From assembly GCA_965552055.1 (NCBI GenBank), contig CBEVQO010000006.1:70394-134393 (forward strand): 64,000 nt of DNA, given 5' to 3'. The stretch is from an uncultured bacterium. Its GTDB lineage: Bacteria; Hydrothermota; UBA3073; NMUJ01; CBEVQO01. How positions within the stretch are numbered: position 1 is the first letter of the stretch; each line of letters opens with the position of its first letter. The notes under the pieces were generated by a model that was not told the origin of the DNA, searched no databases, and saw nothing but the letters and a program-made list of their open reading frames with translations. Positions 54,128-59,156 of the stretch are shown here, in pieces. The translations under genes and the position numbers were made by a program.

Positions 54128-54737
54128 CTTTCCTCCTCACAACTATTTTATCAACAAGACCATATTGTAAAGCTTCTTCTGCACTCATCCAGAAATTTCT
54201 ATCTGTATCCTTTTCTATTTTCTCAACAGGTTGTCCTGTATGATAGGCTAATATTTTATTTATCTCATCCCTTGTTCTCATTATTTCTTTCGCATCTATC
54301 ATTATGTCAACTGCCTGACCAACTGCTCCTCCCCTCGGCTGATGCAGCAAAAAGCGAGCATGCGGTAATGCATAACGCTTACCCTTTGTGCCAGCTGCAA
54401 ATAAAACAGCTGCCATGGAAGCAGCTATACCCATACAAATCGTAACTATATCGGGTCTCACATATTGCATAGTGTCATAAATCGCCAAACCGGCTGTAAC
54501 ATAACCACCGGGACTGTCAATATACATGTATATGTCCTTATGAGGGTCCTCGGATTCAAGAAAAAGCAGTTGCGCAATAACAGAAGCTGCTAACTGGTCC
54601 GTAATCTCACCGCCTATTATTATGATTCTGTCTTTCAACAATCTCGAGAATATATCGTATGCTCGCTCGCCCCTACCTGTTTGTTCAATAACTATTGGCA
54701 CAAGATACATCTCTCCTCCTTTAAAGTTATCAGACAT
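54114..54737 (-). CDS. clpP: Clp protease proteolytic subunit
   Basis: [15 protein letters not shown]. Confidence 0.97.
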
Positions 54738-55920
54738 AACTTATCTTGGCATTTTCAATCAAAAAGTCAATCACTTTCTCCCTGATAAAATAAGACCTCG
54801 CTGCACTTTCCAATCCCTTTTGCCTTATCTCACGCTTCAACTCCTGTAAAGTTTTTCCTTCCTCTTCAGCCCATTCTTTTAATTTTTCTTCAAATTCTTC
54901 TTCTGTTAATTCTATCTTCTCCTTTTGTGCAATTTTATCAAGTATCAGCCTTTTCCTTGCATTCCATACGCTTAATTCCTTTATCTTATCTTCGGGATAG
55001 CCCTGTTCTTTAAAATCATCTTCATAAATTTTAACAATAGATGGAGGCGGTTCAAATTTTGTTTTCTCAATTAACTTATCGATTATCTCCCTTACCGCAT
55101 TCTGACGAAATTGATGTTCCTTCCTTTGCTCCAGTCTTTTCCTGACATCTTCCCTCAATTCCTCAAAATTGTTATATCCTATTTCTTTCGCCAATTCATC
55201 ATCCGATTGCAATAATCTTTTTTCCTTTATCTCCTTTATTTTAACACTATATTCGGTGCCTCCCACATTCACCTTTACATTATCTCCGGGCATCTTTCCA
55301 ATCACTGCCTGCGATAACTCCGGTGCTATCTTTTTATCACCAACGATAAAAGCATAATTATCAACTTTCTGGGGTCTGTAAATTCCTTTCTCTTTTCCAT
55401 AAAATTCAAGGTCACATATTATCATATCTCCTTCCTTTGCTCCTCTCGTCATCACAGGAAAATACTGAGCATATTGCTCCCTCAAATTCATAATCTCCCT
55501 TTCTATCTCTTCTTCTCTAACATCCTTAGGAGGAACTTTAACTTCGATTCCCTTGTAATCTTTCTCATCAATATCAAATTCTGGCATTATCTCGTATCTT
55601 ACTTTAAATTTTAAACCTTCTTTTTCATCGAATTTCAATTCCTTAATCTCTGCCTGTGTGAGTGGGCTTATTTTCTCTTTTTGCAATGCCTTTTGATATG
55701 CATCCTGCACAACATTATTTATTGCCTTCTGCTGTATCTCTTTTCCAAATTTCTGATAAATTATCTGTGGAGGAACCCTGCCCTTTCTAAATCCTTCAAC
55801 CTGCACCGTTGCCTGATACGCAAAGATAAGATTCTGAACCTCATTCTTCACCCTGTCCACAGGTACCTTTATCTCCATCTCCTCAACGCAATCGGATATT
55901 CTTTTCCTCAAAACTTCCAT
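54730..55920 (-). CDS. tig: trigger factor
   Basis: GFRKGRVP; tig-clpP-clpX synteny; start moved to ATG 55920. Confidence 0.93.
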
Positions 55921-55925
55921 CCTTT

Positions 55926-55952
55926 TATTTAATCTTTTTCCCAAATTGTCAA
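55926..55952 (-). promoter_or_regulatory. tig promoter TTGACA-N15-TAAATA, ATG 5 nt downstream
   Basis: -35 55952-55947. Confidence 0.55.
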
Positions 55953-55982
55953 GGGTAAAATGAAAAAAATGGATTTTTATGT

Positions 55983-56010
55983 TTGTCATTATTATTTTGT
56001 CATTATTATT
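55983..56010 (+). repeat. tandem 14-mer TTGTCATTATTATT x2
   Basis: 55983-55996 and 55997-56010. Confidence 0.9.
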
Positions 56011-56030
56011 AAGTAGAAAAGGGAGGAAGT

Positions 56031-57059
56031 ATGAAGTACTTAGGAGTAGACGCGCATAAACGATATGTGGTGATATGTGTTGTAGACGAGTACGGTAAAG
56101 TGCGAGGATTTAAAAAACTTTACTCGCGCGAAGACATTGTGAACTTTGTGCGATCAATTAAAGATGATTGCAAGGCCGTTGTAGAAGCTGGTAGATGCTG
56201 GGGAACTATTTACGATTTACTCGAAAGAATTGAGAATGTAAAAGAAGTAGTACTTGCTAATCCATTACATGTAAAGCTTATAGCACAAAGCCAAAAGAAG
56301 ACCGATAAAATAGATGCCCACACACTTGCACAATTACTCCGGGTTAATTTAATTCCAAATGTTTATGTTCCTCCTCAAGAAACACGCTTATTAAAATATT
56401 TGTTAAGACACAGATGTTTTTTAGTCTGGCAACGAACTACAATCAAAAACAGAATTCATGTTATAATTGATAGAAATCATGTTTCTCCGCCCCCTGTCAC
56501 TAACCTATTTGGGAAATATGGGATGGAGTTTTTGAAGAATGTAAAATTGCCTGATTCTGAACGATACCTTTTAGATAGGCATTTAGAATTACTTAACATT
56601 CTAAATAAGGAAATTGAGAAAACAGAGAGAAAAATTTACAAATTTCTCCTTAAGAATAAAACTACAAAATTATTAATGTCTGTTCCCGGGATAGGAAAGT
56701 TTTTTGCTGCTCTCATTCAATTGGAGATACATGATATTAGAAGATTCCCTTCGCCTCGAAATCTCTTTTCTTATGCAGGATTGGTACCCTCTACCTATGC
56801 TTCAGGAGGTAAAATTTACCACGGAAGGTTAATTAAGTGTTGTAATAAATGGTTAAGATGGGCTTTTATAGAAGCTGCGCACTCTGCAATTCGTAGTTCT
56901 CCTTATTTTAAGAATTATTATTCAATAATGCGTGCAAAGAAAGGCTCAAGTACAGCAATAATAGCTACTGCAAGGAAATTAGCAAAAGCAGTTTATTATG
57001 TGCTTAAAGATGAGAGACCTTATGAAGAAATATATAGCCCTGACCGCCTTCAAATTTAG
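56031..57059 (+). CDS. IS110 DEDD transposase/recombinase
   Basis: GVDAH, VVEA, KTDKIDA, VPGIG, YAGLVPSTYASG, ATARKL. Confidence 0.96.
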   Translation: MKYLGVDAHKRYVVICVVDEYGKVRGFKKLYSREDIVNFVRSIKDDCKAVVEAGRCWGTIYDLLERIENVKEVVLANPLHVKLIAQSQKKTDKIDAHTLAQLLRVNLIPNVYVPPQETRLLKYLLRHRCFLVWQRTTIKNRIHVIIDRNHVSPPPVTNLFGKYGMEFLKNVKLPDSERYLLDRHLELLNILNKEIEKTERKIYKFLLKNKTTKLLMSVPGIGKFFAALIQLEIHDIRRFPSPRNLFSYAGLVPSTYASGGKIYHGRLIKCCNKWLRWAFIEAAHSAIRSSPYFKNYYSIMRAKKGSSTAIIATARKLAKAVYYVLKDERPYEEIYSPDRLQI

Positions 57060-57145
57060 TTGTCCCTTAGAGGACCTGGTCAAGGATAAGGGGTCAGGGC
57101 TCGCATACGATACGATGCGCTACAAGCGCCAAAAGAAGAATGAGC
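57036..57145 (+). ncRNA. putative bridge/seek RNA
   Basis: 10-bp stem 57036-45/57092-101 enclosing internal loop and GTCC/GGAC hairpin; second loop with GCGCT/AGCGC hairpin; loop strands match insertion flanks. Confidence 0.65.
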
Positions 57146-57163
57146 AAATTAATCATCATTATA

Positions 57164-57190
57164 ATTGTAATCGGGAAAAGGGGATGTCAA
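57164..57190 (-). promoter_or_regulatory. antisense promoter in IS right end TTGACA-N15-TACAAT
   Basis: -35 57190-57185, -10 57169-57164. Confidence 0.6.
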
Positions 57191-57230
57191 TGAATTTTCA
57201 GCTTGACTTTTTTTCAAAGAAGCTAAATCA

Positions 57231-59156
57231 TTAATCAAATCCTTCAATCATTATAAAGTTAACCTTCGGTCTTAAACTTTTATCATAATCAAATCCGAAA
57301 CAAATTTTATATTCCCTCTTATTACGCAAAAATTCATAATTAAAAAAAGCACCAAAATAAAGTTTGCTATCCCTGTATCCATCAAGCAAAGTCCAATAGT
57401 TTGTATTCTCCTGATATTCAAATAAAAAAGCAAAACTCATCTTATCCCTGAAAATATCCAGAGAAATACCATAAAAGCCACTGTTAAATTCTTCGCCTCT
57501 CAATTCCCCTATCTTCGCAGAAAAATTACACCCATATCTATTAAATGTGAAATCATAGAAAAATCTCAACATCTTATCGTAAAGGGATAAATCCTCCGAA
57601 ATTAAATCAATTTTGCCAAAATCATATTCGAGCGAAAAACCATCAAAAACTTTTTTCCTGAAAAATAAATAATTTTTGCGATAAATATCATCATACGAAA
57701 ATTTATATCCTATCGCCTCTTCTCCCAGATCAAGCATCATCCTGTTATTCATCTCGACAGGAGACAAGTCCGAAAGATTCATTTCACAATTAAACCTTAA
57801 TTTTTTTAATTTGAAATCACACCATAAATGTGAAAATTGTGAACTATCCTGTGGATAGGAATAAAGATGCAAAAATTTATTCCTTAAGTTTAAATAATAT
57901 CTCAATCTTTTACCCAGCAAAATTGATAAAGCACTTTCTCCTCTCTTCAATGTAAAAATCTTAAAATGCCGTGTTCTACAGGCTTCTATTACATTCGTCC
58001 CAGATTTTATCGCTATGCCCTTCATATCACTTGATTGCGAAAGAGAAAATGTAAATTCGGGGAAAGTAAGAAAAAGAGATATTCCCCTGCTAATCTTCAC
58101 AACAAAATTATCTGTGGCAACTTCCGATACAAAAGAGCTTAAATCTTCATTCCTCTTTGACTTTAAATTAAATTTAAATTTATTCCCACACAAAAATATA
58201 CTTCTCTCTTCAAAATCATACCTTTTCATAAAATTAACCTTACATTTTACATTTTTGAAATAAAATTTTTTTGAAAAATCATATTCGTAAAGAGCGTCAC
58301 CAAATTTTAATCTATTCTCCTTATAGCCAAGAGTAAAAGAAATATTTCTCCTGCATCCTTTGTAATGAATTTCAATTACATCGCCATCTTTCAAAACAAT
58401 ATGAGGATAAATTAAAAATTCACCTTTGTCATAATCGATCTCATAATCTTTACCCTGAATTAATTTTTTTGAATTCAAATAAATTTTTTCGCTACCCGGA
58501 ATAATTTTTTCACGCAACGAATACTTTTGTTTGCCACACTTTGCTCTCACAATTTTTACATTCTCTATCTGCGAAAATTCTACACCCGTTGTGAAATTAT
58601 AAAAAAGAAGCGATACACGATTATTGCGAAACTCAGCACACTTCCTGCCAGAAATTATCTGTAAACCACCGGATAAATCTCCAGGTGAGAAAGTTTTTTC
58701 TCCTTCACTTATATTATCAATGTTACCCCTTATAATGCAATTACCGTACCTGCCTTCCAGTGAAATCGAAGTATTGTTGTAAATTTTTAGACCTGCATCA
58801 TATCCTATACCGATTGACTTACTGCCACAAATTTTTATTTCTCCTGCTTCCGATCCATTACTTTGACAGGTCGTATCTTTAACTCCTGCTGGCTTAAAAA
58901 GAAAATATTCCTTTCTTAACCCCAAATCCAGACCTTTATAAATCACAAGAACCGTATCCCCCGGATAAATCCTTTCTTTAAAAAATATCTTATCACCTAT
59001 TAATGCAAAATCTTTACCCTCTTTCAATTCTCTATGGTTTAGCAATATCCTCAAAGAATCCTTGCAAATTATAAAATGAAAAGGATAAGGTCCTCTTATT
59101 CCTTTTCCTATTATCGTATCACAAAATATTATCTGGAAAAGAAGAATATACCCCAT
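57231..59156 (-). CDS. hypothetical outer-membrane protein
   Basis: beta-rich; IIPGSEKIYLN..GKDYEIDYDKG motif. Confidence 0.5.
   Translation of the reverse strand: MGYILLFQIIFCDTIIGKGIRGPYPFHFIICKDSLRILLNHRELKEGKDFALIGDKIFFKERIYPGDTVLVIYKGLDLGLRKEYFLFKPAGVKDTTCQSNGSEAGEIKICGSKSIGIGYDAGLKIYNNTSISLEGRYGNCIIRGNIDNISEGEKTFSPGDLSGGLQIISGRKCAEFRNNRVSLLFYNFTTGVEFSQIENVKIVRAKCGKQKYSLREKIIPGSEKIYLNSKKLIQGKDYEIDYDKGEFLIYPHIVLKDGDVIEIHYKGCRRNISFTLGYKENRLKFGDALYEYDFSKKFYFKNVKCKVNFMKRYDFEERSIFLCGNKFKFNLKSKRNEDLSSFVSEVATDNFVVKISRGISLFLTFPEFTFSLSQSSDMKGIAIKSGTNVIEACRTRHFKIFTLKRGESALSILLGKRLRYYLNLRNKFLHLYSYPQDSSQFSHLWCDFKLKKLRFNCEMNLSDLSPVEMNNRMMLDLGEEAIGYKFSYDDIYRKNYLFFRKKVFDGFSLEYDFGKIDLISEDLSLYDKMLRFFYDFTFNRYGCNFSAKIGELRGEEFNSGFYGISLDIFRDKMSFAFLFEYQENTNYWTLLDGYRDSKLYFGAFFNYEFLRNKREYKICFGFDYDKSLRPKVNFIMIEGFD

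Follow-up and report, generated by a model that had tools for sequence, protein, structure and literature searches.

The window analysed here is a 64,000-nucleotide stretch of contig CBEVQO010000006.1 (assembly GCA_965552055.1) from an uncultured bacterium of the Hydrothermota. It carries an intact insertion sequence (IS) of 1,269 bp (55954-57222) between the host gene tig and an open reading frame (ORF) of 641 amino acids (aa), a member of the IS110 family (IS1111 group) with a predicted bridge RNA 3' of its recombinase gene (Table 1). The predicted bridge RNA probably spells a -35 signal of the host, and the element is likely to insert, guided by this RNA, at the upstream border of CTTGAC; its left end then adjoins the -35 box, and the promoter points away. 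In favor of this reading, we observed the ends of the element, an AG/CT core, an empty site, covariation of guides and flanks, and, in elements with this guide, CTTGAC at all left junctions.

Table 1. Features at and around the element (positions in the window)
Feature	Position	Strand	Basis
tig (trigger factor), first gene of tig-clpP-clpX; likely start ATG 55920-55918	54730..55920	-	Pfam Trigger_N/Trigger_C
Predicted tig -10 box TAAATA, 3/5 consensus letters	55926..55931	-	15-nt spacer from -35, the one preferred in the genome
Predicted tig -35 box TTGACA, right target half in IS621 terms; first T is second core base of CT	55947..55952	-	Sequence; empty site
Core dinucleotide AG (CT on minus strand), left copy	55952..55953	+	Joint in 3 runs; AG before left end in relatives
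Left end: 7-nt extension, -10 half of predicted junction promoter (TAAAAT, 55956-61), ribosome-binding site	55954..56030	+	Left end shared with L036 and L038, elsewhere inserted
Left subterminal inverted repeat, 9 bp, perfect match to 57208-57216	55961..55969	+	Sequence; repeats covary between both ends in relatives
IS110-family DEDD recombinase, 342 aa, intact	56031..57059	+	PF01548 and PF02371; NF033542 246.8 bits (cutoff 140)
Predicted target-binding loop hairpin; 5' half overlaps last recombinase codons	57036..57102	+	z -3.25
Left target guide AATTTAG plus core-facing TT; reads AT-rich DNA upstream of -35	57053..57061	+	Gap-free column; covaries with right flanks
Right target guide GGTCAAG (57078-84, complement of CTTGAC) plus 2-nt handshake GA	57078..57086	+	Covaries with left flanks
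Right donor guide AAAGAAG (57132-38) plus handshake AA, predicted donor-binding loop	57132..57140	+	7/7 with element right end 57216-22
Right end: TTGACT (57203-08, -35 half of predicted junction promoter), inverted repeat 57208-16, core AG 57221-22	57203..57222	+	Loose contig ends
Right flank CTAAATC, left half of target, host DNA; stops 2 nt short of stop codon of next ORF	57223..57229	+	Joint
Host ORF, 641 aa, transcribed towards element	57231..59156	-	ORF listing

Recombinase, ends and core

The recombinase contains the DEDD_Tnp_IS110 and Transposase_20 domains, with the catalytic DEDD and Ser residues present (D7, E52, D92, D95 and S258, the serine being counted by hand from the translation and lying in a GL-P-x4-SG motif). 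Placement in the IS1111 group rests on sequence features, including 9-bp subterminal repeats (7-17 bp in the group), a long downstream non-coding region (163 nt at the right end, 77 nt at the left), and a guide order that is reversed relative to the IS110 group and matches the IS1111 order (PMC11187229). The recombinase tree comprises loci of this phylum only and, with a very long outgroup row (L023) and short rows (L028, L030, L047, and L048), supports only its two main branches. The host genome (G000) has 1 full copy and several fragments, and a plasmid-borne relative (H30) shares 43% identity.

We identified the empty site in contigs of runs X1, X2, and X4, where 55950 is joined to 57220 with 1,269 bases missing and 3 letters (AAG) ambiguous, which puts the last left-flank base at 55953 and the first right-flank base at 57223 and makes AG the core. 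These runs come from 2 studies, X1 may be the source sample, and the joint was seen in 3 of 8 runs overall; no joint across the element was found in the contigs of X3, searched in the same set as those of X1, X2, and X4, and none spanning it in X5-X8. Runs with the stretch are mostly labelled hydrothermal vent metagenome. At the empty site, the insertion is precise at the short core, with no bases added. Loose contig ends in X1, X3, and X4 start after 57222, and in every relative examined the left end follows an AG. The AG core reads CT on the minus strand, and CT is the core of IS621 (PMC11208158).

An earlier note on this DNA had proposed a TA core. The four sequences on which it drew are present (GTCAAGGGTA at 55948-57, GTCAAGGATA at 57079-88, CAAATTTA at 57051-58, and TAAATCAT at 57224-31), and the 9/10 match of 57079-88 to the left flank was reached by only 17 of 3,000 dinucleotide shuffles of the non-coding region. 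This match would favor the TA register, with ends at 55958 and 57223/57225 and an 8-nt left match, as would the 15-nt junction spacer that it gives and that would suit host promoters. Nevertheless, this register is refuted: the empty-site contigs skip 1,269 bases with the AAG ambiguity, right ends in relatives stop after GAAG, and the extra matching letters are element sequence opposite the handshake guide. The reconstructed empty site thus gave way to an AG core with ends at 55954 and 57222, in which the GGTA following GTCAAG is the left end of the element and the TA at 57224-25 is host flank. A target of 7+7 nt without a core, considered from the 15-nt spacer of the host, is ruled out by the same joint.

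Guides of the predicted bridge RNA

Both RNA segments, GTCAAGGATA and CAAATTTA, belong to the internal loop of a single hairpin (57036-57102). In an alignment of 21 relatives, each pair of the outer stem is formed in 15-21 of them, with several pair types. A search of Rfam returned no real match for the RNA (1 match, E 0.94). The guides are gap-free columns across these 21 related elements of the phylum. In IS621 terms, the target lies on the minus strand, and core plus right guide reads CTTGAC, which places the cut right at the upstream border of the -35 hexamer. That GTCAAG is the reverse complement of CTTGAC, the likely tig -35 box, was borne out by the sequence. The second segment had been described as a 5-nt match to the right flank; it is present, but the correct guide is AATTTAG at 57053-59, which matches the right flank in 6 of 7 positions in the corrected register. 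This match alone is within chance (905 of 3,000 shuffles), and its support is covariation in relatives.

Across 19 lineages with 37 flanks, left guides agreed with right flanks at 5.11 of 7 positions against 2.19 when permuted (0 of 20,000 permutations), and right guides agreed with left flanks at 4.31 of 5 against 3.07 (1 of 20,000; 12 lineages, 35 flanks). The regular expression for the left guide was tuned after the flanks had been seen and agrees with a flank-blind alignment. Further, the handshake base of the donor loop predicts the first flank base (0.76 against 0.38), a dependence also described for IS621, and the right donor guide and the right end change together in relatives (ATAGAAG, ATAGCAG). 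The GTCAAG guide was identified in 10 of the 21 elements, spread over the two main branches of the tree, with a different left guide in all ten.

The joined ends give TTGACT and TAAAAT 16 nt apart, a promoter predicted from motifs in a host that prefers 15 (304 against 57 sites). By analogy with IS621, excision to a circle would bring the two ends together and so restore this promoter, the core and TGAC(A) would be bound by the right target guide, pairing of the left guide with AT-rich upstream DNA would be loose, and the handshake bases would bias the reaction forward. Strand exchange would take place at the core with RNA-DNA pairing, as in IS621 and ISEc11 (PMC11208160, PMC13626964, PMC11187229).

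Junctions and host promoters

Searching by element sequence alone, we found left junctions ending in GTCAAG in 8 of 8 cases in G111, 5 of 5 in G166, and 6 of 6 in single-copy genomes. In the lineage of G000, the long left ends abut GTCAAG in 4 of 4 cases (the window, L036, L038, and a piece in X7), and within G000, GTCA precedes 10 of 36 sites with AG+GGTAAAAT (core plus the first eight left-end bases), compared with 0.3% of AG sites genome-wide. Guide-encoded targeting of the -35 motif, as the earlier note had proposed, was supported, with CTTGAC encoded in the predicted target loop and abutted in all these sets. Neither unrelated flanks nor different ends, which that note had named as evidence to the contrary, turned up among the other copies; relatives with other guides have other flanks, which match their own guides. 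Left-end pattern searches gave no further junctions, the left end in G119 was not found, and the flank of L038 has no counterpart in G000.

Promoters were predicted from motifs throughout. In G000, the motif TTGACN-N15-TAnAAT occurs at 304 sites, with 57 at spacer 16, 27 at 17, and 10-33 at most other spacings. Among 173 perfect promoters, the C of CTTGAC is followed at 32-36 nt by the ATG of an ORF in 70 cases (33-34 nt in 52), and the ATG of tig, 33 nt away, is at the modal distance. The position of the ATG 5-6 nt after the -10 box at many G000 promoters suggests, from sequence, widespread leaderless mRNAs, tig included. An ATG (ORF of 80+ aa) follows 32-36 nt downstream at 135 of 794 CTTGAC sites, whereas four control hexamers gave 1-2%. 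With a crude mask of ORFs, 375 of the 794 sites are intergenic, ranking CTTGAC second of 256 CT+NNNN hexamers (median 9.5%). CTTGAC sites at 15-nt spacing number 1-2 in each of four other genomes of the phylum against 173 in G000; the listed sites in G111, G113, and G166 mostly have a 16-nt spacer, and the preference of G000 may reflect an unusual sigma factor. Several abundant GC-rich repeats, starting with TTAGCCCC or GCGAGCG, stand directly behind promoters in G000 intergenic DNA and are possibly REP-like (repetitive extragenic palindrome) or MITE families.

A perfect -10 box (TAnAAT at spacer 15-17) was found at 8 of 12 junctions of the G000 lineage, compared with 27.5% of the 794 CTTGAC sites (p 0.005), where 10 of the 12 sites are short remnants in a set filtered for CTTGAC and the count becomes 8 of 15 with the three dropped non-TTGAC rows. 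The figures were 4 of 8 in G111 against 149 of 1,153 CTTGAC sites (12.9%, p 0.013) and 3 of 5 in G166 against 93 of 990 (9.4%). When pooled, 17 of 31 junctions of GTCAAG-guide elements and 1 of 16 of elements with other right guides had a perfect -10 (Fisher p 0.001), although pooled p-values overstate the difference since kin are not independent.

Several left ends occur in shortened form. G000 contains stubs of the left end, about ten in all, but none of the right end, and one of these left-end stubs is the site where a close strain has a long left end and the gene start (L036). Candidate explanations of the asymmetry are one-ended transfer (bioRxiv 10.1101/2025.10.25.684509) and deletions halted by an essential -35. 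In the lineage, 2 of 5 right-end junctions continue into a left-end stub that G000 carries as a stub (p 0.007 by a rough count), which would fit the published "half-match" insertion at the donor half (bioRxiv 10.64898/2026.08.31.748434). For two loose-end right flanks, empty sites were not found in G000 in matching context. Two G000 loci (C1:358245-358433 and C1:171684-171835) are internally deleted derivatives with the target loop whole or partial and the recombinase and right end lost, and a host TTGAC promoter follows both. Further, an orphan target-loop hairpin with other guide letters (G000:C5:37460-37530) is followed by a T run and is possibly reused as a terminator; the sequence just before it is presumably a 23S rRNA 3' end.

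Readings of the target choice and known systems

Nearly half of the CTTGAC sites are intergenic, so the guide likely opens hundreds of tolerated sites at little cost, and the remaining insertions would probably be cleared by purifying selection. Copies in three lineages stand behind predicted promoters and have likely spread without breaking genes; a "safe harbour" as an adaptation is our inference. Several findings weigh against promoter targeting, in addition to the kinship and the makeup of the 12-site set given above. Perfect -10 boxes were found in only 2 of 6 single-copy GTCAAG-guide elements, with L025 scoring 3/5, and the tig -10 box of the window scores just 3/5. Intergenic CTTGAC alone already has a perfect -10 at 156 of 353 sites, and 8 of 12 is not significantly above this (p 0.14 using 47%). 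In L002, L012, and L026, three of the ten elements with the GTCAAG guide, the left guide is GC-rich and the flanks are not those of promoters. Some left guides fit poorly (G119 at 2/7 twice, L001 and L006 at 2-3/7 in the strict register), and no left donor guide was identified. The insertion was also said to leave the tig promoter intact; the -35 and -10 boxes are kept, but the UP region is replaced by the A/T-rich left end.

A wider proposal, for which we see the case as evenly balanced, is that selection holds the right guide on the sigma-70 -35 hexamer in two deep branches while the left guide drifts, an RNA-programmed promoter homing convergent with the protein-based homing of TnGBS, in which upstream regions would be rewritten genome-wide and left-end stubs would serve as re-entry sites. 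A by-product with survivorship, which we regard as possible without favoring it, would instead have the guide read any CTTGAC, inherited from a repeat-targeting ancestor, with gene insertions purged. It fits the lack of a significant excess over intergenic CTTGAC, the three GTCAAG-guide elements off promoters, the distance of only 1-3 letters between GTCAAG and most other right guides, and the sister elements that target GC-rich repeats (five distinct right flanks in G013 all begin with CACCGTC). However, with CTTGAC the second most intergenic of the 256 hexamers, much of the sorting is already done by the guide; both branches retain the right guide, whereas the left guide turns over; and the left guide is AT-rich in G000, G111, and G166, like DNA upstream of -35 boxes. 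The data do not distinguish a preference for true promoters from the purging of gene insertions, and selection may do part of the sorting. The GTCAAG guide may be ancestral, and promoter homing may have arisen once the left guide became AT-rich, because three elements with this guide lie off promoters and sisters target GC-rich repeats.

Host assistance, with the RNA setting the hexamer and a sigma factor, RNA polymerase, or promoter opening bringing the recombinase to real promoters, is in our view unlikely. The background of perfect -10 boxes in G111 and G166 is 9-13%, yet all 13 junctions there score at least 4/5 and 7 are perfect, and host-assisted targeting has a protein-based precedent, having been proposed for TnGBS (PMC3942029). 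However, relatives with near-identical recombinases follow altered guides to non-promoter sites, and selection accounts for the same excess.

Compared with IS621 and ISCro4 (PMC11208160, PMC11208158, PMC13626964; PDB 8wt6, 9t56), the element shares a DEDD and Ser recombinase, the CT core, handshake dinucleotides, a 7+2 left guide, a core-overlapping right guide, a predicted donor loop matching the element end, and a predicted junction promoter. Its RNA, by contrast, lies on the 3' side of the gene, and its target and donor are read on the strand opposite to the recombinase gene. Its subterminal repeats are 9 bp long, its protein resembles theirs only remotely (E about 1e-13), and its target is a promoter motif instead of a REP. 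ISEc11, ISPa11, and ISKpn4 with their seekRNA (PMC11187229) resemble it in the downstream non-coding region, subterminal repeats, 7-nt left extension, 342-aa enzyme, GL-P----SG motif, top-strand-pairing segment 5' of the bottom-strand-pairing one, absence of target duplication, and natural guide redirection, whereas their reported targets are a short motif, REP, and attC, with no -35 target in the parts of that source searched. The TnGBS, ISLre2, and ISKra4 Mutator-like elements (PMC3942029) likewise insert in a fixed orientation upstream of housekeeping promoters, with DDE transposases, 15-17 bp upstream of the -35, and with a specificity that depends on a protein motif. The present element, by contrast, inserts at the -35 edge, a site specified in RNA, and its protein is of IS110 type, so that it works alike without being a member. 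IS900, also of the IS110 family, is said to target translation initiation signals (Doran et al. 1997, as cited in PMC8141618), whereas the signal here is one of transcription.

REPs are the targets of ISPpu10 and IS621 (bioRxiv 10.64898/2026.03.19.712850). An IS110 guide encoding a -35 box was not found in the full-text papers searched, with ISfinder target lists and most subscription papers outside that scope and an unnoticed precedent possible; a motif search of the supplements of two papers gave only synthetic promoters, aligned ends, and primers among the matches listed. The element thus combines known machinery with a choice of target for which no published report was found, supported by multiple copies in three host lineages. 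In it, a programmable recombinase found in nature is directed to the intergenic signal that is most general in bacterial genomes, not to one specific repeat, and natural guide swaps with many mapped junctions are now available for IS1111-group bridge RNAs. Whether transposons choose harmless sites or only survivors are seen becomes testable, as the choice here sits in a swappable 7-nt guide, and a route is suggested by which IS remnants reshape promoter upstream regions.

At the empty site, tig and the 641-aa ORF, both on the minus strand, are separated by 41 bp. The ORF (57231-59156) had no Pfam or NCBIfam match, and read-through from it into tig, if any, is interrupted by the element. Within the left end, a duplicated 15-nt unit (55983-56009) gives TTGTCA and TATTAT 15 nt apart, which may act as a weak promoter of the recombinase gene inside the element. 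At 57151-57190, an antisense promoter-like motif in the 15-nt geometry of the host is directed back into the bridge RNA and could exert antisense control. Among relatives, L050 (G243:C46) has its right end doubled in tandem with copies about 70 bp apart, and L027 (G113:C38) has AC as right-junction core and GT as core-facing guide, a possible natural change of core.

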